Source: a virus
Lineage: Duplodnaviria; Heunggongvirae; Uroviricota; Caudoviricetes
Virus record (IMG/VR): IMGVR_UViG_2698536361_000001
DNA length: 33,224 bases
Direction: 5' to 3' (one strand)
The translations under genes and the position numbers were made by a program. Below are positions 1 to 32,813 of this stretch, in pieces. Numbering within the stretch: the stretch's first letter is position 1; each line of letters begins with the position of its first letter. Below the pieces are notes generated by a model. That model made no database searches. It had not been told where the DNA came from and worked only from the letters and a program-made list of their open reading frames with translations.

Positions 1-18
1 GCGGCATAATCCCAATGA

Positions 19-147
19 TTACTCCCTGACAGGGTTCGTAGGCCACTCAATATCAGGTGCAGTTGATGTATCAACACGGTTCAGCAGCATCCGATACTTT
101 TTCCAGGCTTCCAGCAACGGGGTTTCTTCCTCCGTTGCATATACAGC
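19..147 (-). pseudogene. tfa: 3' remnant of a tail fibre assembly (Tfa) gene: 42 codons, no start codon, in-frame TGA immediately upstream
   Basis: Minus-strand frame translates to [42 protein letters not shown], matching the conserved C-terminus of lambda-family Tfa proteins as I remember them; lies directly downstream of the stop of the 158..451 ORF. Confidence 0.55.
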
Positions 148-157
148 TCACCTTTTT

Positions 158-451
158 TCACCCACGATTAACCAACAGCCAGACCAGCAGACACGCCACC
201 ACCGGCACAGCAAAATCCATCAGGCTTGCCACATCCCATGCACGTGTATCAAAACCGCCCCACCACGGCATATTCATTCGCTTGCCATGCCCGAACATTT
301 CGATCCAGCGATATTCTGCCTGGGTGTGTTCACGCGCAATGAAGAACGTACAACCGGCTATCGCCCCGTAAGCCCAGTTCCCGGTAAAAAGACCAATCAG
401 TAGCTGCGCAGCCACAGCACAAAGCGCATGAAGGAAAGGTGTTATATCCAT
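158..451 (-). CDS. Hypothetical small membrane protein (about 97 aa from MDITPF; the ORF track extends to 466 with a non-ATG first codon)
   Basis: ORF 158..466; AGGA 5 nt upstream of the ATG at 451; three hydrophobic stretches (e.g. ALCAVAAQLLIGLF, AVPVVACLLVWLLV); no family recognised. Confidence 0.5.
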   Translation of the reverse strand: MDITPFLHALCAVAAQLLIGLFTGNWAYGAIAGCTFFIAREHTQAEYRWIEMFGHGKRMNMPWWGGFDTRAWDVASLMDFAVPVVACLLVWLLVNRG

Positions 452-460
452 TTTCATCCT

Positions 461-488
461 ACCCAATAAAACGGGGCGCTCGGCCCCT
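461..488 (-). terminator. Putative intrinsic terminator downstream of the 346-aa gene
   Basis: Minus-strand GGGGC-CGAGC-GCCCC hairpin followed by GTTTTATTGGG. Confidence 0.4.
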
Positions 489-493
489 TAATA

Positions 494-1534
494 TTATTTA
501 GACGCAAGCGCCGCCTCAATTGCAGATAATCTTTGTCTTAATTCTGCGTTTTCTTCTTCCAGTGCTGTTATTCTGTCGTCTGACTCTCTGGCTACCTGAA
601 CAAGCAAGCCAGTAACACCAGAATAATCTACTGTGTAATAACGTTCACCTTCTTCACCTTCCGATCCGCTCGCACCGTCCTGATATTTCATTGCGGAACC
701 TACAACTTCTGGGATTGCTTCCAGAGCTTCCTGTGCAATGACACCAGCATAGGGCATACCGTTTTCTTTAAGCGTGTATGTATAGCCGTTCATTTTACGG
801 ATGCGGTCGGTTGCATTATCGATCACCTGAATGTTGTCTTTCAGATCCCGGTCGGAATGCTGGTTAAATGCGGTGGCATGACATGCACCATTAACGCTTA
901 ACATATAGGTGTTATCGGTATTTTTCTGCGCATAGAACATATAAGCGCCACCATCAACACCGACTTCATAAACAACAGGACGGCTGGAGTTGCCCCACAA
1001 TTGAGCAGTAACACCAGCATAAGCGGTTCCCTGTGTGTTTAATGTCATGGTTGACCCATGATTGGCATATTTGATCTGTAATGTGTCGGTGTAATCAAAT
1101 TTAATAAGCGCGTTACTTCCACGCTTGCTGTATGACATAAGGCAGTTACCCATTTTGAGGTATCCGCTGTCACCGGGAAAAATCATCGTACCGCCATAAA
1201 GGTTGGTAAAGTCCCAGCAAATGTTTGTCCCGTTATCGTTCAGGTTAAGGCGCGCCATTGCGTTACCTGGACTGTCTATCCATTTTTTGAGGTATAGTTC
1301 GCAATACGCATCCTCAACACCTGCCGTCCTGTGAGTTGAGCGGAGTTTTCTCCCAAATATAGCTCCGCTAGTTGGCAATACCTGCTGATACCATGAAGCA
1401 GACCAGTCACCAACGATTTCATCTTTGCTGTCTACATATAATTTTGTTGCGTAGCTTCCTTGATCGTTTTTTAATTTGCTAACGTCGGATTTTAGCGTTT
1501 TGATGTCATCAGGAATTACTGTCGATGTAGCCAT
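494..1534 (-). CDS. Tail fibre / tailspike-like protein (346 aa) with a C-terminal intramolecular chaperone (peptidase S74-like) autoprocessing domain
   Basis: ORF with AGGAAGAAAA-ATG RBS; C-terminal 120 aa show the S74 pattern (HSDRDLKDNIQVID...GVIAQEALEAIPEVV...coiled coil RITALEEENAELRQRLSAIEAALASK), as in T5 pb1 and endosialidase chaperone domains. Confidence 0.7.
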   Translation of the reverse strand: MATSTVIPDDIKTLKSDVSKLKNDQGSYATKLYVDSKDEIVGDWSASWYQQVLPTSGAIFGRKLRSTHRTAGVEDAYCELYLKKWIDSPGNAMARLNLNDNGTNICWDFTNLYGGTMIFPGDSGYLKMGNCLMSYSKRGSNALIKFDYTDTLQIKYANHGSTMTLNTQGTAYAGVTAQLWGNSSRPVVYEVGVDGGAYMFYAQKNTDNTYMLSVNGACHATAFNQHSDRDLKDNIQVIDNATDRIRKMNGYTYTLKENGMPYAGVIAQEALEAIPEVVGSAMKYQDGASGSEGEEGERYYTVDYSGVTGLLVQVARESDDRITALEEENAELRQRLSAIEAALASK

Positions 1535-1543
1535 TTTTCTTCC

Positions 1544-1825
1544 TCACATCCAGCCACGAAGTTGATGCTCAACAGCAACCACGTATTCATCGAATAATGA
1601 CGATATTTGCGAATCATTAATGATGCGCACGTTTACAAAATATCCGTCTTCCTTAACACATACCGGTTCGCCATCTTCAGTCAGTTCTCCGGTTTCTTTG
1701 TACACGTTACCTATCACGTCGATAAGAATATCATCCTGCATCGACTCGTCATCATAATAGCCAATACTCTCCATAAAGGCCGAAAAGTCGGCCCTGTCTT
1801 CAAATTTGAGTGTTAAATCTTTCAT
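1544..1825 (-). CDS. Hypothetical acidic 93-aa protein, translationally coupled to stf
   Basis: ATG at 1825 overlaps the stf stop as TAATG; Asp/Glu-rich; no family recognised. Confidence 0.55.
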   Translation of the reverse strand: MKDLTLKFEDRADFSAFMESIGYYDDESMQDDILIDVIGNVYKETGELTEDGEPVCVKEDGYFVNVRIINDSQISSLFDEYVVAVEHQLRGWM

Positions 1826-4035
1826 TAGATTGACTCCCCCATTTGTGCCTCAGTTAATTCTTTATGCCAAATGCGTAAATTTTTCACATGACCGAACAGG
1901 TGTCTGTTGCCACTGGATGATTGTCCACCGATATTAATATTACCGGCAGTATAACGTTGCAATGTATGCAGAGACGGGGAGCTGCCACCTAAAATTCCAT
2001 CAACAACAACCTGCAACTGTTTATCTTCTGTAAACTTAAAGCCAGTAACAAATTTCCTTTTCTCTCTATTCCCATATGCTTTATATTCTGTTTTTGTTCC
2101 TTTGCCATTGGTGATAATTAGCCTTTTACCACGAGTGGTAAAACCAAAATACATATAACTTTCATCAGAAACTTCAGTCGTCGCCCCTGTAATTGAGATA
2201 TTAAGCAAACGCGCAGAGCCTTCTAAATTAGGCATTTCAGAATCCCAATTAACATTAACTTCCATGAGAACACTAACTGGTGGAGTTGCCCAATTGAAAG
2301 GTATAGGTATGATTACCTGGTCACTTGCTCTCGTGGCACCGACCTCTGTTGTGATGATAAAAGATGACGCGTTTAGTCCCTTTTCGAATTGAGGGGTTGT
2401 TAACATTAATTTATCGCCAGACTTGATTGATCGTTGATGTGCTCCAAACTCAAAACGCCCATACATATTTTTTGCTTCTGGTGATTTGTAGGTAAACTCA
2501 ACACGAATCCATCCATTAGACTCTCTGAATATGTTATAAGTTGCCGCCTCACCTCCAGAATAACTCAACATATCGCCAGTCTCGCAATCAATATATGCGC
2601 CAGCGGTCAGTGTGTTACTTGAGCCATCGTCGTTAACATATGATATTCTTGGACGCAACGTGATAATACCATCCCCACTTACTTTTTTAACTCTGCAGGA
2701 TAAAGTAACTGATTCATTTGCCGAAACTGAAATAACCCTGGTATATCCAGTAGAAATTAATGTCGCCCTTTCAGTTGTGGATGTTTCTTTAACGCCAAAC
2801 AAACCATAACTGAAACCATACTCATCAACTCCCGTGGTAATAGTTAAGTTAGCAGTGTCATAGTTCCACGATACTGGTGTATTCGTATAAGAAAAAGTAT
2901 TCGTTCTCTGACCTTCAATGAGCAGACCATCTTTTTCAAAACGTGGTTCATTTATCGCTGATTCAGCAAAACACCCAGACTTATCTATATACGTTGCAGT
3001 TGACGCCCTGGTAAATGAAACAACCTTTTCAGACGGCAATGCAATAACATCGTCACCAACTGTGATGCTCTTATATCCAGGAGCAAACCCGGTAATCATA
3101 TCCAGTGAATCGTTAAACGGTATCCACACCTCAGGTAACGGCTGTAAGACATATTTATACGGCTCCGCAGCCTGGCTTGCGTACTCTCTGGCTGCATCTT
3201 CGCTTGCTTTAGCTGCCGTCTGGCTTGCTGCCGATGCTTTCGCTGAGTTCGCAGCCGCTGTTTCGCTCGCCTTTGCGTTGGTTTCACTGGTTTTTGCTGC
3301 TTTTTGACTGTTAGCTGATGCAGTGGCAGAAGCAGCCGCCGCACTTGCAGAACCAGCTGCAGCACTCTCGCTTTCGGCTGCTGCAGCCTGACTACTTTTC
3401 GCCGCAGTTTCGCTGGCTTTGGCATTCGTTTCGCTGGTTTTCGCTGCCGTCTGGCTGGACTTCGCGTTGGTTTCGCTCGTCTTTGCGGCTGTCTCACTGT
3501 TTTTCGCGTTGGTTTCTGATTTTTTGGCTGCAGTCGCGGAGTTTGCCGATGCAGTCTGTGAGGCCGCTGCCGCCTGTGCGCTGTTAGCTGCGTTCGTTTC
3601 TGAGGTTTTCGCCGCGTTCTTCGATGATGCCGCTGCTGTTTCGGATTTCTTTGCCGCCGCTGCGCTCTGAGAGGCGGCTTCAGCGTTGCGTGCCGCTTCT
3701 TCCACCATTTCCTCAAAACGACGCAATGCCTCCGGCATGACATCATCTTCCGTCATGGCACCGAGAAAATCATTCAGCGTCCCCGGCTTAGAATCTTCAT
3801 ACACGGTGATGGTCCCGGCATGTGAAGGCGGAAAACCTTCAACCAGCAGGATAACGCTGTACTGGCCATACTCAACATCCATGCTGTAACGCCCGGCTTC
3901 ATCCGGATTTTCAGAGGCCACCGTGTTCACCAGTACCGTGGTGCTGTTACGCTTTGCCTTCAGTTGAATAGTGCAGTTCTGTATTGGTTTTCCCGCACCA
4001 TCTTTCAGCACACCTGAGATTTTTACTGCTGCCAT
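1825..4035 (-). CDS. stf: Side tail fibre protein Stf, chimeric: lambda-like N-terminus, Ala/Ser/Thr-rich repeat shaft, divergent C-terminal region ending in a LamG/ConA-like motif
   Basis: N-terminus MAAVKISGVLKDGAGKPIQNCTIQLKAKRNST matches lambda Stf; repeat units KTSETNAKxS; C-terminus GHVKNLRIWHKELTEAQM resembles a LamG jelly-roll end. ATG at 4035 preceded by GGAG (the ORF track starts at a GTG at 4041). Confidence 0.85.
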   Translation of the reverse strand: MAAVKISGVLKDGAGKPIQNCTIQLKAKRNSTTVLVNTVASENPDEAGRYSMDVEYGQYSVILLVEGFPPSHAGTITVYEDSKPGTLNDFLGAMTEDDVMPEALRRFEEMVEEAARNAEAASQSAAAAKKSETAAASSKNAAKTSETNAANSAQAAAASQTASANSATAAKKSETNAKNSETAAKTSETNAKSSQTAAKTSETNAKASETAAKSSQAAAAESESAAAGSASAAAASATASANSQKAAKTSETNAKASETAAANSAKASAASQTAAKASEDAAREYASQAAEPYKYVLQPLPEVWIPFNDSLDMITGFAPGYKSITVGDDVIALPSEKVVSFTRASTATYIDKSGCFAESAINEPRFEKDGLLIEGQRTNTFSYTNTPVSWNYDTANLTITTGVDEYGFSYGLFGVKETSTTERATLISTGYTRVISVSANESVTLSCRVKKVSGDGIITLRPRISYVNDDGSSNTLTAGAYIDCETGDMLSYSGGEAATYNIFRESNGWIRVEFTYKSPEAKNMYGRFEFGAHQRSIKSGDKLMLTTPQFEKGLNASSFIITTEVGATRASDQVIIPIPFNWATPPVSVLMEVNVNWDSEMPNLEGSARLLNISITGATTEVSDESYMYFGFTTRGKRLIITNGKGTKTEYKAYGNREKRKFVTGFKFTEDKQLQVVVDGILGGSSPSLHTLQRYTAGNINIGGQSSSGNRHLFGHVKNLRIWHKELTEAQMGESI

Positions 4036-4046
4036 ATCCACTCCAC

Positions 4047-4073
4047 AAAAAAGCCCGCCTGAACCGGCGGGCT
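4047..4073 (-). terminator. Intrinsic terminator between lom and stf
   Basis: Minus-strand AGCCCGCC-loop-GGCGGGCT hairpin followed by TTTTTT. Confidence 0.55.
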
Positions 4074-4099: not shown

Positions 4100-4699
4100 T
4101 CAGAACTTATAACCGACACCCACGATGAAACCGTCAGTGCGCCAGTCACCACTGCCGGAGCCTTCATAAGCAATATCAATGGCCACGGATTCGGTCGGGT
4201 TAAACTGCACGCCAGCTCCCCACGCCAGAGACGTGTTGCTGTGGCGACCGTCATCACTTCCGGTCAGCACATCGTGCGTTTTCCCCTTGTTGTCAGTTAC
4301 GCGGAGGTAATCCCCGGAAAAAGTCGAAACACGGCTGTAAGCCATACCCGCCATCGCATACGCGCTGAACCATTCATTCACGCGCACAGACGGCCCCGCC
4401 ATCACGCTGAACCAGCGGTTACGCACGGAATCTTTATGCCAGCGGGTATCGCTGTAACGGGTCAGCTGACGATTCTTGTATCCTGCATAACTGAATGACG
4501 TCACCAGCCCCAGCGTGTCCGTAAATTCATAACGGTATTTCACGTTAATGCCCTTCAGGTCATCACTGCCTGGCATATCAGTATGGGTCTGAAGATACCC
4601 GGCGCTTAGTGTGGACTGATGCTCTGCTGCGCTCGCTGGCGTACCAGCGGCAACCAGCCAGACTACTGCGGACAGAATAACAGCACATAATTTACGCAT
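4100..4699 (-). CDS. lom: Outer membrane protein Lom (Ail/Lom family beta-barrel)
   Basis: 199 aa, signal peptide MRKLCAVILSAVVWLVAAGTPASA, ends ...GFIVGVGYKF; matches lambda Lom; RBS GAGAGG before the ATG. Confidence 0.9.
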   Translation of the reverse strand: MRKLCAVILSAVVWLVAAGTPASAAEHQSTLSAGYLQTHTDMPGSDDLKGINVKYRYEFTDTLGLVTSFSYAGYKNRQLTRYSDTRWHKDSVRNRWFSVMAGPSVRVNEWFSAYAMAGMAYSRVSTFSGDYLRVTDNKGKTHDVLTGSDDGRHSNTSLAWGAGVQFNPTESVAIDIAYEGSGSGDWRTDGFIVGVGYKF

Positions 4700-4723: not shown

Positions 4724-4747
4724 AAAAAAGGCGTCATTTCTGACGCC
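4724..4747 (-). terminator. Intrinsic terminator between J and lom
   Basis: Minus-strand GGCGTCA-GAAA-TGACGCC hairpin followed by TTTTTT. Confidence 0.55.
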
Positions 4748-4766
4748 CGTATTGGGGTTATAAAAT

Positions 4767-7700
4767 TCAGCTGATACTGATGCCTGCAGTGGCTTTCTTC
4801 ATCACAACAACCAGCAAATCGCTGATACTTGCTGTGGGATACCAACCATTTACCCACCATGCTGATACAGAAAACTCCAGTGTCATTACACCACTGCCTG
4901 CAGGCATATCAATAACACCCGTGTAAATCAGAGTATTATCCAGAGCCGTTCGGTTATAAATTTCAGCCCCGTTTTTCTTCACTATCAGGCGGCATGACGA
5001 ATAAGTATCGCTATTCTCCCGCTCATGTCTGGCACCGCAGAAAGCCACCGCTGGAATAACAATTTGCCGGTCAAACGACTGATCGTCATAAACCCTGACG
5101 GTAATAGTCCCTGATGGCCACCGCTCCGGTGCACGGGAGTCCCGGGGGAAAGCTTTGCCCACTGTTTTAACGAGATCGCCTTCAATCTGGTTCGCGGACA
5201 GTTTTCCCAGAACCCGACAGTTCTCGTTAATCGTGACATTATTGAGCGTCCCGGAGTTCGCATTCACGTTACCGCTGATATCGGCATTTTTCGCCGTCAG
5301 CCGCCCGTCCGGTGTCAGGGAAAATACCGGAGGATTGCCGCCACTGGTAATGGTGGGAGCCGTCAGATACTTCAGGAACACTTCGTTCATGAATATCTGG
5401 TTGCCCTGCGCCACAAACATCGGCGTTTCATTCCCGTTTGCCGGGTCAATAAACGCGATACGGTTAGCGGCAACCAGGAACTGGCTCAGTTTGCCTTCCT
5501 CCGTATCCTCCATACTAAGGCCAAGCCCCGCGACATAATGCCTGCCGTCTTCGGTCTGCTCAATTTTGACGCCCCACATGGCATTCCATTTATCGTTGGC
5601 GTCCTTCCACTCTTTCGAAAACTCCTCCAGTTTGCTGGCGTTATCCTCCGTCAGCTCGACTTTTTCCAGCAGCTCCTTGCCGAGATGGGATTCGGTTATC
5701 TGGCCTTTGAAAAAATCCAGGTAACCTTCCGCATCATCGCTCGGCTGACCAACAGCCTCCACGAATGCCGATTTGCCAACGGTGTTCACACTGCGGATAT
5801 AAAAGTAATAATCATGGCCCGGTTTGATATTGATACTGGCAGCTATCCAGTACAGCGCCGTACCAAGATAGCGGGCTGTGGTCTCAACCTGCCTGATATC
5901 GGTAATCCGCTTTTCCGAGAACCAGAACTCAAACTGTACCGTCGGATCATAAACCGCAAGATGCGGCGTGGCAGTTATCTGAAAATAGCCCGGCGTCAGC
6001 TCAATCCGCGACGGCGCTGCCGGTGCGGCAATCCGGAACGATACCGATGCCGGATCGCCCTGCTGTCCCCACGCATTTACCGCCCGGACCGTCAGCGTGT
6101 AACGCCCCAGCGCCAGTTGCCTGAAGCGGTATGTGGTTTCCGTCGTCCTGGCCGTGCTGACCAGCCGCTCACTGCCGTCATCCGCTGCCACGGTCAGGCG
6201 AAGCATAAAGCTCACCCCCTTCACCACCTTCGGCGTATCCCAGCGCGCCAGCACCTGATACTCCCCGCTGTCTGAGGTGACTTCGGCAGTCAGGTGCTGC
6301 ACCGCAGGCGGCGTGACACCATTCACCGTGCCGCTCTGGTCGCCGTCAAAGTGCGCCCCGTTATCCACGATGGCCTCTTTTTCCGGCACATGCTGCACGG
6401 CGGTGATGGCATACGTGCCGTCGTCGTTCTCACGGATACTCACGCAGCGGAACAGGCGCTGGCGCAGCGTCGGCAGCTTCAGCCCCCATACGCTGTATTC
6501 AGCAACACCGTCAGGAACACGGCTCACTTTTACCTTCACGCCGTCGGTGACGGACTGAACCTCCACGCTGACCGGATTGCCACTTCCGTCAACCAGACTT
6601 ATCAGCGTGGTACCGGAGGATGGCAGCGTGATTTCACGGTCGAGCGTCAGCGTCCGGGTCTGGCTGTTCACCGCCAGCACGCGCCCGCCGATGCTGATAC
6701 CCGCATAGTCATCATCACAGATTTCAATGACATCCCCCGGTACATGGCGAAGCCCTTCCGCACCCACGCTGAAGTCCACGGTCTGCGTTTCCAGCAGTTC
6801 CGTTTTAATCAGCCACAGCCCGGCGCGGTGCGCCTGCCCCCGGCTGGTACAGCCAAAGGCATCCATCTTCGTGACGTTACGACCGTAACGGGCAATGGCC
6901 TGCGTATCTTCAACAAGCTCTGTCGCCGTCTCCCAGCCGTTGTTCGGGTCAATCCAGTTCACCTCAACGGCATTATGGCGGTCCTTCAGGGCGCTGAAGC
7001 TGTAGCGGAACGGCGCGCCATCATCCGGCATCACCACATTACTGCGGTTATAGGTCCACACCTTATCTGATGGTCGGTCCTGCACGAACGTCAGCGTCTG
7101 CCCGTTCCATACCGGCATACAGCGCATCGCCGAGCAGAAATCACTGAGCACATCCCACGCCTTGCGCTGTGTGGTCAGCCAGGCATTACAGGTGATGCGC
7201 GGCTCCGTGCCACCAAAGCCATCCGGCACCGACTGGTCGCAATTCTGGCCGATGACATACAGCGCCCATTTGTCCACATCCGCCGCACCGAGACGCTTCC
7301 CCATGCCGTAGCGCGGATGGGTCAGCATATCCCACAGACACCAGGCCATGTTGTTGCTGTATGCTGGCTTAAACGTTCCGTCCCAGATACCGCTGTATTG
7401 TCGCGTCTGCGGGTTATAGTTCGACGGCACCTGCAGAATGCGCCCGCGAAGATGATAATTACGACTCACCTGCTGGCTGCCGAACTGCTCCGAGTCCACC
7501 TGTACGCTGACCAGTGCCGTGTTCGGGTAGCACTGTTTCACATCGATGATTTCGGTGTATGACGACCAGAGCGTTTTGTTCTGCAGCTGGTCTGTGGTGC
7601 TGTCCGGCGTCATCCTGCGCATCCGGATATTAAACGGGCGCGGCGGCAGGTTATCCACCACCACCGAGGCCAGATACTGCGAGGTGGTTTTGCCTTTAAT

Positions 7701-8162
7701 GGTGATGTCTTTTTCCGTCACCCAGCCACCGTTACGCTGTATCTGAACCAGCAGGCGGACTTCCGACGGATTCCGGTCCCCCTTTGAGGTGGTTTCCACC
7801 AGTGCCTGCACACCGAAGGTAAAGCGCAGACGGTCGATGTTTGCAGACGTGATGGTCCGGGTAATCGGCGTGTCGTACTTCACTTCCGTACCCAGCACCG
7901 TCTCGGAGCCGGAGGATTCAAATCCCTCCGGCGGTGTCTGCTCCTGCTCACCTGCCCGGAACACCACCGTGACACCGGAGATATTGGTATTCCCCTCACT
8001 GTCCAGCACCGGCGTACTGTTCAGCAGCACACTTTTTAATCCGTCCACCGGACCTTCAATCGGCCCTTCACTGATGGCGTCTATCACGCTCAGCATCTGG
8101 GATGATTTCAGGTTGTCCTTCGCTTCGCGCGGGGTATGCCCCTTACTGCTGCCTTTACCCAT
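4767..8162 (-). CDS. J: Tail tip host-specificity protein J (central tail fibre)
   Basis: 1131 aa, [20 protein letters not shown]..., same length and order as lambda J. Confidence 0.95.
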
Positions 8163-8870: not shown

Positions 8871-9511
8871 TTGTCGGTATACCTCTCTCGTTTACTCAGT
8901 TGTTCAGGAATATGGTGCAGCAGCTCGCCGTCACCACAGTAAATGGCGGCATGATTCGGCACCGATGAACCAAAACAGCACAGCAGCACATCACCCGGTT
9001 GTGCTGATGACAACGGCACCTGATACAGCCCTGTGGCCTCCAGATTATCCAGATAGAGATTCTGGCCGTTACGCCACCAGTCATCCTCACGATGAAAATC
9101 CGGCATCTCAATCCCCGCCAGATGGTAAGCGTCCCGGAACAGCGTGTAACAATCCGTCACCCCGTGCTCAAAGCGCCGCCCGGTAAGATGCGGCACACAG
9201 CGGAATTTATGAATCGCCCCCCGGCAGACCAGCCACCATGGCAAATCACTCTGCACCTGCAGCCGCCGGTCAGCCTCACTCAGCCAGGGCAGGCCACCGG
9301 GGTGGCTGTGGACCAGCGCCACAATCTCACCCTGCATCTCTGCCCGCAGCCAGTCCTCCGGCGACATCCGGAAATAATCCTCCGGCTCACCGGAGATATT
9401 CACGCAGGGAAAATATCTTTCCCCTTCCGACGTTCTCACCACGAAGCCGCACGACTCCGCTGGCGCACATCGCCGGGCGTGCGCCAGAATCGCTGATTCT
9501 GTCTCTGTCAT
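8768..9511 (-). CDS. K: Tail tip assembly protein K (MPN/JAMM plus NlpC/P60 domains); long 247-aa form, with an alternative internal ATG at 9367
   Basis: JAMM motif HSHPGGLPWLSEAD; the ORF starts 6 bp after the L stop. Confidence 0.85.
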   Translation of the reverse strand: MTETESAILAHARRCAPAESCGFVVRTSEGERYFPCVNISGEPEDYFRMSPEDWLRAEMQGEIVALVHSHPGGLPWLSEADRRLQVQSDLPWWLVCRGAIHKFRCVPHLTGRRFEHGVTDCYTLFRDAYHLAGIEMPDFHREDDWWRNGQNLYLDNLEATGLYQVPLSSAQPGDVLLCCFGSSVPNHAAIYCGDGELLHHIPEQLSKRERYTDKWQQRTHSLWRHRAWRESAFTGIYNDLAAASTCV

Positions 9512-9516
9512 GGGAT

Positions 9517-10215
9517 TTACTGCGAAAGTTTGTTAATGGAAAGGAAGCCGCCAAAGTTGCCGACATTATTGCGGAACTTACAGCCACTCAGGCATTTGCT
9601 GCATTTATCCTTCGTGATTTCGGATGTCGGCTGGTCATATTCATCCGCGACCGCCGGACCGTGATAACCGCACTCATCACCGCGATAGGTCCAGGTGCAG
9701 GTATTAGCAAGCATGATGCGCCCCGGAAAAACGGCACCATCCGTTTCCGTCGGCGTGGACAGTACAAAAGAGGCACTGACCGCGCTCAGTTCGCTGCACT
9801 GCTCGATGCGCCAGCGGCTGATCACCTCCTGCTCCGGATCGGCGTCGCTGTTTCCGTTGACGAAGTTCACCGCATCCAGAAAACGGGCATAAACCTTACG
9901 CCTGACCACCGTTCCGCCGACCAGACTCTGCAGGTCTTCCGCCATCCCGGTGACCATACCGTACAGGTTAGAAACCGTCAGCGTGGGGCGCGTACTGGTG
10001 CCTTTGCCATTCAGTTCAAAACCACTCCCCTGAATGGGATACGGCTGATACTGTCGCCCCTGCCAGGTGACCGGCTCACCTTTTTCGTTCTGCTCATTAC
10101 AGAAAAAATAACGTTCTCCACCGACCTCTGTCAGGTCGATTTCCCAGAGCACCACGCTGGCCGACTGCTCCGCACGGGTGCATTCATTCAGTGTTTCCTG
10201 CCGGATATCCTGCAT
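9517..10215 (-). CDS. L: Minor tail protein L
   Basis: 232 aa, 699 bp, lambda L position and length. Confidence 0.9.
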   Translation of the reverse strand: MQDIRQETLNECTRAEQSASVVLWEIDLTEVGGERYFFCNEQNEKGEPVTWQGRQYQPYPIQGSGFELNGKGTSTRPTLTVSNLYGMVTGMAEDLQSLVGGTVVRRKVYARFLDAVNFVNGNSDADPEQEVISRWRIEQCSELSAVSASFVLSTPTETDGAVFPGRIMLANTCTWTYRGDECGYHGPAVADEYDQPTSEITKDKCSKCLSGCKFRNNVGNFGGFLSINKLSQ

Positions 10216-24424: not shown

Positions 24425-24450
24425 GAGTTGCCCATCGATATGGGCAGCTC
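24425..24450. terminator. Hairpin between convergent bor and Rz (possible bidirectional terminator)
   Basis: Inverted repeat TGCCCAT-CGAT-ATGGGCA. Confidence 0.35.
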
Positions 24451-24911
24451 TATCTGCACTGCTCATTAATATACTTCTGGGTTCCTTCCAGTTGTTTTTG
24501 CATCGTGATCAGCCTCTCTCTGAGGGTGAAATAATCCCGTTCAGCGGTGTCTGCCAGTCGGGGGGAGGCTGCATTATCCACGCCGGAGGCGGTGGTGGCT
24601 TCACGCACTGACTGACAGACTGCTTTGATGTGCAACCGACGACGACCAGCGGCAACATCATCACGCAGAGCATCATTTTCAGCTTTCGCATCAGCTAACT
24701 CCTTCGTGTATTTTGCATCGAGCGCAGCAACATCACGCTGACGCATCTGCATGTCAGTAATTGCCGCATTCGCCAGCTTCAGTTCTCTGGCATTTTTGTC
24801 GCGCTGGGCTTTGTAGGTAATGGCGTTATCACGGTAATGATTAACAGTCCATAACAGGCAGACGATGATGCAGATGAGCAGAGCGGAGATAATCGCGGTT
24901 AACCGACTCAT
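24450..24911 (-). CDS. Rz: Spanin inner-membrane subunit Rz
   Basis: 153 aa from [21 protein letters not shown]...; lambda Rz. Confidence 0.9.
24509..24691 (-). CDS. Rz1: Spanin outer-membrane lipoprotein Rz1 (embedded in Rz, +1 frame)
   Basis: 60 aa, lipobox VVGC, proline-rich [21 protein letters not shown]. Confidence 0.85.
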
Positions 24912-24999
24912 GACATCAACACTCCAACAGCCAGAAACCACGGCCACGCATCGTTGCCATTGAATGCGAGCAACGCTGCCATGAAAAAGCAAATCATGC

Positions 25000-25497
25000 T
25001 CATTGTTGCCCCCACAAACAGACTTCACGCTCAATCTCACGGCGAGTCATCAGCCCTTTCCATTGCTTACCGCCAGCGTATGTCCAGCGCCGTAGCTGAT
25101 CACATGCGCCTTTGATATCGCCCTGGTTTATTTTGCGAAGAAGCGTCGATGTTCTGAAATTGCCAGCGCCCACGTTGTAAACGAATGAGTAAAGAGCGCC
25201 GCGCGTTGTTTCCGGTATATCGACTGTGATGTACGGGTTAATTTGTCTGGCGACAGTGGCAAGGTCTTTATTCAGGAGGGCTTTGCATTCTGCTTCGGTA
25301 TACGTTTTACCGAGCATGATGTCTTTTCCGGTGTGTCCGTGACATACAGTCCATACGCCAACGATATCTTTGTATGGTATGTAGCTGACACCTTCCAGGC
25401 CATCGTCACCACTCGGACCAGTGATGAGCACAGACGCTATGGCAACAGCCCCACCACCAATAGCAGCAGCAATAGCCTTGCGTAATGATGGCGACAT
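25000..25497 (-). CDS. R: SAR endolysin (T4-lysozyme fold, signal-anchor-release type; phage 21 R-like)
   Basis: 165 aa; N-terminal SAR segment [20 protein letters not shown]. Confidence 0.9.
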
Positions 25498-25712
25498 TAT
25501 TCACCTCTCGCAGCCTTACGCTTATCTTCTTTAATCTTGAAATAAAGGTTTGTCAGATACGTCAGCAAGCCAAATACCAGACTACCCAGCACACCTATTG
25601 CCGCCCACTGTGAGGGCGTGACTTTATCGAGCAACTGTAAAAACCAGTACCCGGCACTACCTGCTGAGGTGCCATAGGCGACACCCGTTGTTAACTTATC
25701 CATGGATTTCAT
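25497..25712 (-). CDS. S: Pinholin (class II holin, phage 21 S-like)
   Basis: 71 aa, [25 protein letters not shown]...; dual start (M1/M4); stop overlaps the R start as TAATG. Confidence 0.9.
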
Positions 25713-26301: not shown

Positions 26302-27384
26302 ATGAAAAAATTAACAGTGGCAATTTCTGCTGTAGCTGCATCAGTACTGATGGCGATGTCTGCTCAGGCAGCTGAAATTTATAATAAAGACAGTAACAAG
26401 CTGGATCTATACGGGAAAGTTAATGCCAAGCACTACTTTTCCTCTAATGATGCAGATGATGGTGATACTACTTATGCCCGTCTTGGCTTCAAAGGTGAAA
26501 CCCAAATCAACGATCAACTGACTGGTTTCGGTCAGTGGGAATATGAATTCAAAGGCAACCGTGCTGAATCTCAAGGTTCTTCCAAAGACAAAACCCGTCT
26601 TGCATTTGCAGGCCTGAAATTTGGTGATTACGGCTCAATCGATTACGGCCGTAACTACGGTGTAGCATACGACATCGGTGCGTGGACTGACGTCCTGCCA
26701 GAATTCGGTGGTGATACCTGGACCCAAACAGATGTGTTCATGACTGGTCGCACCACAGGTGTTGCAACCTATCGTAACAACGACTTCTTTGGTCTGGTCG
26801 ATGGCCTGAACTTTGCTGCTCAGTATCAGGGTAAAAATGACCGCACTGACGTAACTGAAGCCAATGGTGATGGTTTCGGTTTCTCCACTACTTATGAGTA
26901 TGAAGGATTCGGCGTGGGTGCAACCTATGCTAAATCAGATCGCACTGACGGTCAGGTCGCCTATGGTAAGAGCAAATTCAATGCCTCCGGCAAAAATGCG
27001 GAAGTATGGGCTGCAGGCCTGAAATATGATGCGAACAATATCTATCTGGCTACCACATATTCTGAAACTCAGAATATGACCGTTTTTGGTAATAACCATA
27101 TTGCAAACAAAGCACAAAACTTTGAAGCAGTAGCACAATATCAGTTTGACTTCGGTCTGCGACCATCTGTTGCTTACCTTCAGTCAAAAGGTAAAGACCT
27201 TGGTGTTCATGGTGACCGAGACTTAGTCAAGTATGTCGATGTCGGTGCTACTTACTACTTTAATAAAAACATGTCCACTTTTGTTGATTACAAAATCAAC
27301 TTAATTGACGATAGTAAGTTTACCAAAACAGCTGGTATTGATACCGACGACATCGTCGCTGTAGGTCTGGTTTATCAGTTCTAA
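26302..27384 (+). CDS. nmpC: Outer-membrane general porin, OmpC/OmpF family (phage-borne NmpC/Lc type)
   Basis: 360 aa, signal peptide ...AMSAQA, porin C-terminus ...VAVGLVYQF; matches NmpC/Lc as remembered. Confidence 0.95.
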
Positions 27385-27572: not shown

Positions 27573-27956
27573 TCAATTAGAATTATTAGCAACGATATCC
27601 ATATCTAACCGGATATCTAATGCCATTAACATCCCTTCAATTATGCCCTCAGCCTTCTGTAACCTTTTCCCGATATAACCATCCGAGCAGCAATGCTTAC
27701 TTGCCAGTGACATGAATGTCATACCACATACATAATAATCTACTAATAAATCGTGTAAATCGCTGTTGTTCTTTTTCAGACGGGCCATGCACCCGCAAAT
27801 GATCATCGCGTCATCGTCACAACATTGCGGGCGAGATTTTACTTTTGAAGGAATTAATCCCTTAAAACCGGCGGCAACGGACGACCAGGTCACATCTTCA
27901 TGATTATTAGCCGCCCACGCTCCCCAACGCTCAAGAACCATCTGAATATCACGCAT
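27573..27956 (-). CDS. quuD: Late-gene antiterminator Q (phage 82 / DLP12 QuuD type)
   Basis: [24 protein letters not shown]... 127 aa; matches QuuD as remembered; the ORF track extends 5 codons upstream. Confidence 0.85.
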
Positions 27957-28041
27957 CAACTTACTCCACAAAAATCAGACCAGAACGCCAATTACAAGCA
28001 AAAATCAACAAAACAGTATTAGTTGATTGTTATCTCTGACT

Positions 28042-29929: not shown

Positions 29930-30937
29930 TTGTATGGTATGTCAATGGCCATGTCGGTCGGGAGTTGTGCAACACCTGTCCAGACTAATTTTCCTGGTTA
30001 CACCCCGGGTGCAGATATCATTAGTGTTTCACCCACCAGAAACCAGGTCGATCTCATTGGTGATGTTGTTTATTCCCAGATAAAAGGAACTCGTTCTGTC
30101 AGACAGCTTCACATGTCAGTTCTTGTCCCGCGAACAAATGATTTAAAACCAGCCATTATTTATTATCCCGGCGGCGGATTCATGTCTTCTGAACATGACA
30201 AATTTATTGAAATGAGAATGGCTCTGGCTGAAGCTGGTTTTGTTGTGGCCGCTGTAGAATACAGAACAATTCCTGATACATTTCCAGCACCAGTTGAGGA
30301 TGGGAAAGCTGCAATACGTTACTTGAGAGAACATGCCAGCGATTATGGGATTGATCCTCAAAGAATCGGAGTTCTGGGTGACTCTGCCGGTGGATGGCTT
30401 GCCCAGATGATGGGAACTACAAATGGTGACAAAACCTTTAATAAAGGTGACTTTCTTCAGCAATCAGCAGATGTTCAGGCAGTTGCCACACTTTATGGGA
30501 TTTCTGACTTGTTGAATATTGGCGAGGGGTTCCCTGAATCAGTGCAGGAGGTTCATCGATCTCCTGCCGTAACCGAAGCCTTAATGATCAATGGCCCTGC
30601 ATTCAGAAGTTTTGCGGGAGCCCCCATAACAGCGTCAAAAGAAAAAGCGCTAAACGCCAGTCCAATCGGACATATGAAAGGAGTAAAACCCCCATTTCTT
30701 ATTATGCATGGTAGCAAAGACACTCTGGTTTCACCTGAGCAAAGCGCCAAACTATTCAGGATGTTGAAGAAGAACGGCGATAACGCTGAGTACGTTCTGG
30801 TAGAAGGGGCTGAGCATGGCGATAATACATGGTATCAGCCAATTATTATAAACAGAGTTGTTGAGTGGTTTACTAAAAACCTGGGAACCCCCATAAAAAC
30901 CGCTACCCAACAACAAAAAACAAACGCTGACCTGTAA
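29930..30937 (+). CDS. Alpha/beta-hydrolase esterase/lipase (HSL-like), probably an ex-lipoprotein with a damaged 5' end
   Basis: Oxyanion-hole YPGGGF, nucleophile elbow GDSAGG, downstream Asp/His (HGSKDT, AEHGD). First codon of the listed ORF is TTG; in-frame ATG-TAA at 29885..29890 precedes a lipoprotein-like leader. Confidence 0.75.
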   Translation: MYGMSMAMSVGSCATPVQTNFPGYTPGADIISVSPTRNQVDLIGDVVYSQIKGTRSVRQLHMSVLVPRTNDLKPAIIYYPGGGFMSSEHDKFIEMRMALAEAGFVVAAVEYRTIPDTFPAPVEDGKAAIRYLREHASDYGIDPQRIGVLGDSAGGWLAQMMGTTNGDKTFNKGDFLQQSADVQAVATLYGISDLLNIGEGFPESVQEVHRSPAVTEALMINGPAFRSFAGAPITASKEKALNASPIGHMKGVKPPFLIMHGSKDTLVSPEQSAKLFRMLKKNGDNAEYVLVEGAEHGDNTWYQPIIINRVVEWFTKNLGTPIKTATQQQKTNADL

Positions 30938-31286: not shown

Positions 31287-32813
31287 TCAAAAATAAATCT
31301 CACCATCAACCATATATTTAAGAGTACTTATCGCCTGCTGGGCGGATATTACTTTCATTAAAGGATAGTGTTTAAAAACAATGCCATTCATAAAATAGAT
31401 ATCACAGGTTTTATTATCTGTATTAATTATAATTTTTTCGAATATTTTATAGGCAAGTGTACGACATAGCTCTCGCCCATTTTTACTGGTTAAATCAATA
31501 GCATGAAAATCACCAAGTGAACTCACCCCTTTACTCTTCAAAGTTTTTAATGATACCGAAGCCCTTCGTAATTCCTTATCTAATAGTCTTATTTTCTCTG
31601 CTATAGCGGTAACTTCAGGCGCGACAGACAATGCAACGATTAAATTATTAATTTTCATCTGAAGCTCAATAATTTTTAACTCTAAAGTTTCATTAGCATC
31701 TTTCTTGTTTTCAACTGGTTGAATTTTGCTACAATTAAAAAGCAATTCATTAATGATATTATAATCAACCAAATCTCTTTTTATTGATGGTCTGTCACAT
31801 CGATGTAATCTTCTCATCGGACAAACATAATAGCCATGCAAACTTCCAGATACCGCATGAACAATCATGGTATTACCACAAGCCTCACACTTCATAACTG
31901 TTCGAAGTAGATTTATTAGCATAGGATTCTTGCTACTATTGCTAATACCAAAAGGTGCCAACCGAATTTCCTGTACAGCGTAAAACAAATCATCTGATAT
32001 GACTCTGGGATAATAGCCAGCGATTTCACTTATCCCTTTCCCTCTTGCACGATATGAAGGTACGCATATACCTATCAGAGCTTTATTCGCTAATAATTTT
32101 TCAATTACAGAAGGTCCCCATGCACTTTCTTTTCCTGAGAAATTCTTTACAGCATGATCATTTAAATACTTGGCTATTGCATTCAATGAGCGCCTTTCCA
32201 TCCTGAGTTTAAAAATTAGCTCAATAGTTTTCACCCTGTCGGGGTCTGGAACAAAAGCCGTTCTTTTGTCATCCAATGAGAGCCATCTCGGACAAGAAGC
32301 CGTCATAATCGTGCCTGACTCCAGTGCATCCTGCCGTTTTTTCTTCCATGATAATTTAACCCGACTTGACTTTATCTCGCTTTCTTCATTTGCCCTTTGT
32401 GCTATAAGTATGGCTTTTATTAATGAATATGGCTCATTCAATGAGTCAATATTATAGACTGTATTATCGCAAAGAGTTATAACATCAATACCGTGATTCA
32501 AAATCAATTTCAGACGCTCAATCGCTTCACCGACTTTTTCTCTTGAAAGTCTGTCCAGACTTTCAACTAACAATGTAGTCCCTGGCAATATATAACCATG
32601 TTCTATAGCATCTAAAAATTCCGAAAAAGCTCCTGATTGTGCATGCTTTCCATTGAATGCGCTTAACCCCAAATCTTCATACGTTACGGTATCAAGGTAA
32701 TAATCACTATTTACCTTTAGCCATTCAGTAATAAGCCTTCTCTGGCGGTTTAATGAATCACCAGACATCTGACCTGGTGATGAAAATCGCATATATGCTA
32801 TGGCTTTTTTCAT
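31287..32813 (-). CDS. ybcK: Large serine recombinase (YbcK-like, resolvase/invertase catalytic domain plus C-terminal zinc-ribbon)
   Basis: 508 aa; N-terminal AIAYMRFSSPGQ catalytic-serine motif; Cys cluster CEACGN...CPMRRLHRCDR. Confidence 0.9.
   Translation of the reverse strand: MKKAIAYMRFSSPGQMSGDSLNRQRRLITEWLKVNSDYYLDTVTYEDLGLSAFNGKHAQSGAFSEFLDAIEHGYILPGTTLLVESLDRLSREKVGEAIERLKLILNHGIDVITLCDNTVYNIDSLNEPYSLIKAILIAQRANEESEIKSSRVKLSWKKKRQDALESGTIMTASCPRWLSLDDKRTAFVPDPDRVKTIELIFKLRMERRSLNAIAKYLNDHAVKNFSGKESAWGPSVIEKLLANKALIGICVPSYRARGKGISEIAGYYPRVISDDLFYAVQEIRLAPFGISNSSKNPMLINLLRTVMKCEACGNTMIVHAVSGSLHGYYVCPMRRLHRCDRPSIKRDLVDYNIINELLFNCSKIQPVENKKDANETLELKIIELQMKINNLIVALSVAPEVTAIAEKIRLLDKELRRASVSLKTLKSKGVSSLGDFHAIDLTSKNGRELCRTLAYKIFEKIIINTDNKTCDIYFMNGIVFKHYPLMKVISAQQAISTLKYMVDGEIYF

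Follow-up and report, generated by a model that had tools for sequence, protein, structure and literature searches.

A proposed two-fibre module of phage-21 type at the side-tail-fibre locus of a lambdoid Escherichia coli prophage

Gene content of the tail-fibre end

The tail-fibre end of a virus genome of 33,224 nucleotides (IMG/VR record IMGVR_UViG_2698536361_000001; the whole stretch is referred to here as the window) carries a set of genes that differs from the stf-tfa pair of bacteriophage lambda. The gene for a side tail fibre (Stf) is followed by genes for an acidic protein of 93 amino acids (aa), a 346-aa protein with an S74 intramolecular chaperone (IMC) domain and a small membrane protein, and then by a remnant of tfa (Table 1). 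These open reading frames (ORFs) had been described in an earlier note on this DNA, and all of them were found on the minus strand where it had placed them. The ORFs from Nu1 to J make up a complete lambda-type morphogenesis set, and stf follows J and lom as the late operon closes, the place that it also has in lambda. The stop codon of stf and the start codon of the 93-aa gene share a TAATG overlap, and the 346-aa gene, which is referred to below as the third gene, starts 9 nt past the stop codon of the 93-aa gene with GGAAG ahead of its start. The GC content is 0.38-0.46 over positions 501-3000 compared with 0.55-0.64 in the morphogenesis operon (head and tail genes), which bears out an earlier remark on the AT-richness of the region.

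The closest relatives of the element are prophages in complete E. coli chromosomes, which are 99.2% identical to it over this region. In the closest genomes the module adjoins sitDCBA and a truncated icd, and the prophage is seated at icd. Given that the gene order of phage 21 also ends in sitDCBA and that a P21-type holin gene is present in the window, the element is a phage-21-like lambdoid prophage of E. coli.

Table 1. Features at the tail-fibre end of the window, in the order of transcription (nt positions in the window).
Feature	Positions	Strand	Basis or remark
J	4767-8162	minus	ORF
Terminator-like hairpins flanking lom	4729-4748 and 4052-4073
lom (Ail/Lom outer-membrane protein)	4100-4699	minus	PF06316, E 6e-122
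Side tail fibre Stf, 738 aa	1825-4041	minus	ORF; PF08400; phrog_1419 full length, E 0
Stf collar (tail-attachment) domain, residues 5-134	3640-4029	minus	PF08400, E 1.4e-68
Stf 'KTSETNA' Ala/Ser/Thr-rich repeat shaft, residues ~135-295	3157-3639	minus	Lambda-like, length-polymorphic
Stf non-lambda distal head, residues 300-738	1828-3144	minus	Hypervariable core ~1900-2900
Gene-transfer-agent (GTA) head-spike-fibre domain, Stf residues 374-572	2326-2922	minus	NCBIfam NF048003, E 4.8e-18
ConA/laminin-G-like C-terminus, Stf residues 628-733	1843-2160	minus	PF13385 (Laminin_G_3), E 9.4e-6
93-aa acidic protein, phrog_1361	1544-1825	minus	ORF
346-aa protein (proposed second fibre), phrog_4563	494-1534	minus	ORF; PF13884
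Putative N-terminal anchor motif of the 346-aa protein, residues 1-32	1439-1534	minus	Conserved among third genes
C-terminal S74 intramolecular chaperone of the 346-aa protein, residues 227-346	497-856	minus	PF13884
Intrinsic-terminator-like hairpin	473-487	minus	GGGGC-loop-GCCCC, then GTTTTATT
Membrane protein, phrog_1443	158-466 (102 aa from TTG at 466); 158-451 (97 aa from ATG at 451)	minus
Remnant of the tfa 3' end, lacking a start codon	19-147	minus	Lambda Tfa match

Stf has a collar and shaft of lambda type and a different head

The N-terminal domain of Stf scores 229 bits against PF08400 (cut-off 26.6), and residues 5-97 match PDB entry 9e7m, 'Tail fiber protein', with an E value of 1.8e-50. 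This entry is the gpStfN collar of Ur-lambda, and in the Ur-lambda virion the collar domain is present in twelve copies which clamp the junction of gpV and gpM (PMC12617516). The shaft that follows the collar consists of Ala, Ser and Thr to 66% and is encoded in part by 42-nt tandem repeats (3396-3499). The earlier note described Stf as a chimera in which a lambda-like N-terminus switches to a repeat shaft and an unrelated C-terminal region. While both ends agree with this description, the shaft is no departure from lambda, as lambda orf-401 is 58% identical to residues 5-261 of Stf with the repeats included, and the shaft was rejected as a chimeric junction since lambda has the same one. The protein departs from lambda only at residue ~290-300 (~295). 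Nucleotide alignment with lambda places the breakpoints at ~139, inside tfa, and at ~3683, and thus the distal part of stf together with tfa is indeed replaced relative to lambda.

In the closest genomes Stf is 801 aa long (e.g. the genome designated L001), and the Stf of the window is shorter by 63 codons (189 nt) which are missing in frame from inside the repeats, the difference being placed at 3254-3501 of the window versus 9443-9690 of L001. This loss is a polymorphism in shaft length and not a defect.

Two observations on annotation concern the shaft. PGAP (RefSeq) annotates the intact ORF for the 801-aa Stf as three pieces, either pseudogenes or partial genes, apparently an artefact of the repeats. 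Long ORFs in alternative frames also run over the shaft (3096-3746, minus; 2918-3307, plus; 3419-3670, plus), one of which encodes 216 aa rich in Arg, Gln and Lys, and the lambda record annotates a comparable antisense 'orf206b' at the same place. Such ORFs are mechanical by-products of repetitive, GC-rich codons.

Beyond the shaft, a tblastn search of the window with lambda orf-314, the gp37-like distal tip, gave no match. The head that occupies this place is homologous, from end to end, to Gp22 of IrisVonRoten (39% identity) and to the lateral fibres of KarlJaspers and KarlBarth (36-39%), and a further homologue forms the C-terminal 420 residues of a 1479-aa fibre in an rV5-like phage (E 4.6e-40). 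When the head is aligned with its homologues, strongly conserved blocks (LQPLPDVWIPFNDSLDM...EPRFEKDGLLIEGQRTN; TPQxExG..ASSFIIT...TRASD; IGGQ..G.RHLFGH.RN.RIWHK.L) are interspersed with variable stretches, a pattern which would be compatible with a jelly-roll, lectin-like head bearing variable loops. GTA head-spike fibres related to the central domain bind capsule, and the Stf head may likewise bind a glycan.

A small acidic protein is encoded next to the head

The 93-aa protein has a predicted pI of 4.05, with 22 Asp or Glu residues versus 7 Lys or Arg residues, and its gene overlaps the stf stop codon, so the earlier characterization of the ORF as acidic and coupled was accurate. No Pfam or NCBIfam model matches it, and a sequence search of the PDB returned nothing significant. 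The AlphaFold2 (AF2) model of the protein has a pLDDT of 87.6 and the fold of a generic alpha+beta sandwich, for which a fold search gave no informative relative. A search of 1.84 billion representative proteins, which supplied the diverse homologues, gave just 63 clusters of the family at 50% identity, and a profile search of a 5.8-billion-protein set brought up only close relatives among the matches listed.

Homologues of the 93-aa protein are found next to homologues of the head. In IrisVonRoten, KarlJaspers, KarlBarth and the rV5-like phage the gene follows the head-bearing fibre gene with an overlapping or adjacent start, and the same order, with the gene directly after that for a head-bearing fibre, holds for T5-like, Drexlerviridae, Dhillonvirus and rV5-like phages. 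The gene is intact in phage 21, ev243, 4A7 and rV5-like phages, which have no third gene. Because it is kept where there is no third gene, its primary partner must be the Stf head, and the 93-aa protein is most likely an assembly factor or an accessory subunit of that head.

The third gene encodes an S74 protein with fibre domains

The IMC domain which the earlier note recognized in the 346-aa protein is supported by a match of residues 227-278 to PF13884 (Peptidase_S74; E 4.8e-14, 52.8 bits, cut-off 22). The PHROG family of the protein is labelled 'tail fiber protein', and its residues 132-342 match the C-terminal tips of two families of 1200-1570-aa fibres, phrog_6578 and phrog_5668. Since phrog_6578 additionally matches the N-terminus of Stf, some phages have this tip as part of a fibre of the Stf type. 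A profile built from 32 homologues and compared with the PDB matches a fibre domain of T4 gp34 (5nxf/4uxe) at positions 162-238 with an E value of 4e-9, as well as the IMC-bearing tip of S16 gp37 (6f45). S74 domains cut themselves off at a Ser-Asp...Lys site. The corresponding stretch of the 346-aa protein, S227-D-R-D-L-K, is nearly invariant among the 32 homologues, and the chain is predicted to be cleaved before S227.

At the other end of the protein, the first ~15 residues (MATSTVIPDDIKTLK) recur at the N-termini of IrisVonRoten Gp24 (MVTKTVIPTDITKLK) and of the third-gene products of KarlJaspers (MATVTNIPADITALK) and KarlBarth (MVTKTNIPADITALK), and also on an alternative 234-aa protein, while the remainder of these products is unrelated. 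The consensus is M-[AV]-T-x-T-[VN]-I-P-x-D-I-x-x-L-K, which proteins of T5-like, Drexlerviridae and Dhillonvirus phages have in common, and a helix is predicted at residues 11-29 of the 346-aa protein. At least three forms of the third gene occur, namely that of the window, a type whose N-terminal half is 55-63% identical, and that for the 234-aa protein, which has only the first ~32 residues in common with the window type and by eye ends in an S74-like manner (...SSIRYK...GLIAEEV...). A constant N-terminal anchor joined to a variable distal part is the hallmark of receptor-binding proteins that can be exchanged. The 346-aa protein is probably a second, short, self-folding fibre and not a chaperone for Stf.

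Occurrence, linkage and variation of the module

The 93-aa gene was found in 988 of 5426 complete E. coli genomes (~18%) and in 181 phage records, and the four-gene arrangement occurs in the cultured lambdoid phages 2G7b, Tritos, HannyBb and IdasGreatGrand and in the N15-like PhiR46_1. Searching IMG/VR with the 93-aa protein yielded 80 loci, at each of which its gene lies directly after an Stf gene of the same architecture. Likewise, a search with the 346-aa protein yielded 75 loci, and at every one of them the third gene is immediately preceded by the Stf head and a gene of the 93-aa family, the latter being of the window type in 61 and a divergent 89-aa subtype, which accompanies a divergent Stf C-terminus, in 14. 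The membrane-protein gene comes next in 49 of the 51 loci retrieved with the 346-aa protein that reach far enough. A search of the literature on lambdoid side-fibre modules with intramolecular chaperones and on phage 21 and sitABCD found no paper that directly describes this lambdoid module.

In a scan of GTDB species representatives with a narrow alignment of the 93-aa family, matches were confined to two Escherichia species and one metagenome-assembled genome (MAG) that is probably mis-binned. The MAG in question, labelled 'Collinsella sp.', contains a 2.8-kb contig (JAGZNZ010000051.1; L168) that encodes a protein 91% identical to the 93-aa protein of the window, and the contig is almost certainly a mis-binned fragment of an Escherichia phage.

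Sequence variation was mapped by laying 49 loci that span the module on the window and taking the share of loci which are at least 90% identical at the nucleotide level. This share is 96% for the membrane-protein gene and 92% for the collar, the shaft, lom and the end of J. It is 82% for the 93-aa gene with the last ~25 codons of stf, where all loci are at least 70% identical, and it falls to 53% for the 346-aa gene and to 14% for the core of the Stf head (1900-2900). The hypervariable parts are therefore the Stf head (1900-2900) and the third gene (500-1440), and the C-terminal end of Stf, the 93-aa protein and the N-terminus of the third-gene product form one conserved block. Nearly all combinations of Stf-head alleles with third-gene alleles were seen, which indicates two independent variable cassettes between conserved linkers. 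The free reassortment of the two cassettes favours the suggestion of the earlier note that the region is a host-range module. The note also regarded the swap as a feature of this element, and here the data disagree: the linkage across loci and the presence of the same tfa remnant at many of them indicate that the replacement relative to lambda is old and inherited. The module is accordingly a common alternative to stf-tfa of lambda that is standard in lambdoid coliphages and not a one-off.

Comparison with related tail-fibre systems

Stf and Tfa of lambda and Ur-lambda (stf, orf-401 plus orf-314; tfa, orf-194) share with the window the position after J and lom, the collar and the KTSETNA shaft. 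Lambda has an OmpC-binding, gp37-like tip (orf-314) and a full-length tfa, whereas the window has neither and encodes what is predicted to be a lectin-like globular head instead, followed, unlike in lambda, by genes for the 93-aa partner and a second fibre.

The tail-fibre end of phage 21 (OL657228) reads J, stf, a 92-aa ORF, a 97-aa membrane protein and sitDCBA. Its Stf is 46% identical to that of the window over the full length, its homologue of the 93-aa protein 54% identical and its membrane protein 95% identical. Both elements have the P21 holin, and in both cases, as judged for the window from its closest genomes, sitABCD is next to the module and the attachment site is icd. Phage 21 differs in having neither lom nor a third gene, and its allele of the Stf head is unlike that of the window.

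Outside the lambdoid phages, a counterpart of the gene set is the lateral tail fibre of the T5-like phage IrisVonRoten (Bas32). Residues 124-796 of its Gp22 are 39% identical to Stf residues 126-738, head included (E 2e-112), and Gp23, which likewise sits between two fibre genes, is 39% identical to the 93-aa protein (E 5e-24). The gene order is identical, and Gp24, a T-shaped fibre, has an N-terminal motif (MxTxTVIPxDIxxLK) and a C-terminal IMC like those of the 346-aa protein. There are differences as well, in that the fibre of IrisVonRoten is attached by the LtfC collar system of T5 and not by a collar domain of lambda type, Gp24 is 574 aa long with two receptor-binding domains whereas the 346-aa protein has a different body, and the membrane-protein gene is missing from the locus. 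In a structure prediction, the IMC-bearing Gp24 was modelled on the proximal fibre Gp22, whose C-terminal galectin-like domain protrudes as an additional binding domain, and in the same study a homologue, Gp36 of JakobBernoulli, consists of a coiled coil, a T5-like tip and an IMC (10.1101/2024.09.12.612763).

Experimental precedent for branched fibres made of two proteins comes from DT57C and DT571/2, in which LtfA and LtfB are encoded in tandem and the second is held on the virion via the first (PMC4728585, PMC10713586). LtfB and the 346-aa protein are alike in having a C-terminal, auto-cleaving S74 chaperone domain (cleavage being a prediction for the latter). LtfA, however, ends in S74 rather than in a lectin-like head, and the papers on DT57C do not discuss a 93-aa partner. 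The likeness is one of architecture. The K1F endosialidase, T5 pb1 and S16 gp37 also have a C-terminal PF13884 domain with Ser-Asp...Lys and a fibre domain ahead of it. Compared with these S74 fibres and spikes, the 346-aa protein is very short and has no tail-attachment domain but just the N-terminal motif of ~32 residues.

Proposed organization of the side fibre and alternatives

A side fibre built from two fibre proteins is considered the probable, though by no means secure, product of the module. Trimers of Stf would clamp to the tail by the lambda-type collar domain, extend on a repeat coiled coil of lambda type and end in a globular, lectin-like head. As Stf does not have the gp37-like tip of lambda, it would need no Tfa. 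The 93-aa protein, the translation of which is coupled to that of stf, would help to assemble the head or would join it. The 346-aa protein would trimerize by means of its own C-terminal S74 domain, which would later be released before Ser227, and its N-terminal motif may dock on the distal part of the assembly of Stf and the 93-aa protein, as suggested by the homology with the modelled Gp22 and Gp24. The resulting fibre would bear two receptor-binding units, and host range would shift when the core of the Stf head or the body of the third gene is swapped between the conserved linkers formed by the shaft, the 93-aa block and the membrane-protein block. Neither the membrane protein nor the tfa remnant would take part in fibre assembly.

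Several points weigh against this organization. The presence of the 346-aa and 93-aa proteins in the virion and their contact with Stf are deduced from sequence. The block made up of the Stf C-terminus, the 93-aa protein and the N-terminus of the third-gene product might owe its conservation simply to its use as a linker for recombination and not to a protein interface. The match of Stf to Laminin_G_3 falls slightly under the Pfam cut-off (26.3 versus 27.6 bits), and the AF2 model of the 346-aa monomer (pLDDT 60.5) was too poor for a fold search and was not used. Finally, the short KarlJaspers homologue of the third-gene product is annotated in the BASEL collection as a 'putative lateral tail fiber chaperone'.

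It is possible that the 93-aa protein serves as a structural joint in the virion, comparable to the gp35 knee of the long tail fibre of T4, between the Stf head and the N-terminal end of the distal fibre, and not as an assembly chaperone. This explanation overlaps with the two-fibre organization and agrees with the constant presence of a 93-aa-family gene upstream of the third gene, with its location between both fibre genes in lambdoid, T5-like, Drexlerviridae and Dhillonvirus phages, with the conservation of the three adjoining protein segments as one block, and with the GenBank label 'tail fiber protein' on the IrisVonRoten homologue. The 93-aa gene is intact, however, in the phages listed above that have no distal fibre gene, and holding the distal fibre therefore cannot be its primary role; nor does a generic alpha+beta sandwich speak for a joint. 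On balance a joint is rather unlikely.

An unlikely alternative is that the 346-aa S74 protein acts in trans as a chaperone which replaces Tfa and folds the chimeric Stf, a different chaperone logic for one fibre, as the earlier note proposed. The 346-aa gene holds the position that tfa has in lambda, PF13884 bears the name 'chaperone of endosialidase', the annotation of the KarlJaspers homologue points the same way, and the alternative 234-aa form would leave only ~115 residues in the mature protein. Nevertheless, S74 domains such as those of endosialidase, T5 pb1 and related proteins generally work in cis, on the chain of which they are part, and are removed by auto-cleavage. The head and the 93-aa gene are present in phage 21, ev243, 4A7 and rV5-like phages, all of which dispense with the third gene, and the 346-aa protein contains a fibre domain like that of T4 gp34 and is similar in sequence to the tips of long fibres. 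The existence of head-bearing fibres in the absence of the third gene and these fibre domains are what make a trans-acting chaperone unlikely. In addition, 346-aa alleles assort independently of Stf-head alleles, and the later BASEL paper treats the homologues as receptor-binding fibres (10.1101/2024.09.12.612763).

Under the two-fibre organization, virions would recognize their hosts, besides by J, with two units per side fibre that bind glycans or surfaces and are independent of each other and exchangeable. Natural junctions for the engineering of lambda-based delivery particles, with no need for a chaperone of the Tfa type, would then be found at the end of the shaft, in the 93-aa block and in the N-terminal motif of the third-gene product. 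In a tentative extension, the 93-aa protein might found an undescribed family of assembly factors or joints for lectin-headed fibres, conserved across lambdoid siphoviruses and the T5-like and rV5-like phages, and might form, together with the N-terminal motif of the third-gene product, a plug-and-play socket for interchangeable, self-chaperoned distal fibres. The module as such is an ordinary and widespread side-fibre set of phage-21 type, the T5-like counterpart of which has already been modelled in the literature. Scientific interest would accordingly rest on the roles of the 93-aa family and the 97-aa membrane protein, the rest being ordinary tail-fibre mosaicism.

The membrane protein, the tfa remnant and the distal border

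The membrane protein has hydrophobic segments at its N-terminus and C-terminus and is 93-97% identical in phage 21, 4A7, ev243, L056 and other prophages. No Pfam, NCBIfam or PADLOC match was obtained for it, and as PADLOC returned no matches for any of the three downstream proteins, a role of these proteins in defence is unsupported. The protein was also considered as the product of a moron or superinfection-exclusion gene of the kind that accompanies receptor-binding genes (Cor, Llp), for which a promoter and terminator of its own and a lipoprotein or a known exclusion family would be expected. Its gene lies 3' of the terminator-like hairpin that closes the unit of stf, the 93-aa gene and the 346-aa gene, and a scan with consensus sequences found no promoter-like site for it. 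In phage 21 the gene directly follows the 93-aa gene and has its own ribosome-binding site. It is not found beside the homologous fibre genes of the virulent phages examined and occurs in temperate phages only. The earlier note counted the membrane protein as part of the fibre module, which these two circumstances, the terminator and the absence from virulent phages, make doubtful. The gene stays constant while the alleles of Stf, J and the third gene vary, indicating that the membrane protein is not tied to a particular receptor, and it is probably linked cargo of temperate phages outside fibre assembly.

That all of the ORFs downstream of stf are unlinked morons is very improbable: although the placement and constancy of the membrane-protein gene, the AT-richness of the region and the adjoining lom, a classic moron, would suit such an origin, the linkage of the 93-aa and 346-aa genes is absolute and their starts are coupled, homologous gene sets are also seen in virulent phages, where morons are few, and fibre and IMC domains are present in the 346-aa protein. 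Only the membrane-protein gene is possibly an unlinked moron.

The tfa remnant corresponds to residues 156-194 of lambda Tfa, which match positions 22-138 of the window with 85% identity (tblastn), and its nucleotide identity with the 3' end of lambda tfa is 88.7%. As the earlier note stated, only the last codons of tfa (39-42) remain. The frame opens right past a stop codon and has no start codon, and RefSeq labels it a partial tail fiber assembly protein; it was rejected as a functional small ORF given these features and its annotation as a partial pseudogene. There is no other Tfa match in the window, nor any tail-fibre assembly family among the Nu1-to-J, lysis and nin-region ORFs scanned, and Tfa is not used. 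The remnant is an old scar of recombination where the module ends distally.

Some related prophages have an invertase gene beside the remnant. In L056 the remnant (9311-9440) is followed by a gene for a 196-aa serine invertase of the Pin/Hin type (9528-10118), and the scar may derive from an invertible tail-fibre segment like those of e14, Mu and P1. In 2G7b (L002, 3941-4964) and ev243 (L090, 4775-5929) a gene for a SAM-dependent methyltransferase lies between the membrane-protein gene and further tfa fragments, and cargo genes for an OmpT-like protease and a lactone hydrolase come next. Cargo insertion has a hot spot at the distal border of the module, where sitABCD is located in the lineage of the window and in phage 21.

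Other genes in the window

The other ORFs scanned belong to the lysis, Q and nin-region genes and to cargo. A complete porin gene of the OmpC/NmpC type (26302-27384, plus; PF00267, E 2e-151; local GC content 0.32) lies on the opposite strand between the gene for the Q antiterminator (27573-27971) and the P21-type holin, lysozyme and Rz genes (24450-25712), and it resembles an nmpC-like moron of the sort carried by DLP12. The AT-rich early/nin region contains a gene for an alpha/beta-hydrolase of the BD-FAE/esterase family (29930-30937, plus; E 3e-44) and, adjoining it, one for a large serine recombinase of 508 aa with Resolvase, Recombinase and Zn-ribbon domains (31287-32813, minus). The hydrolase and the recombinase may be cargo or may have a function in integration or inversion.

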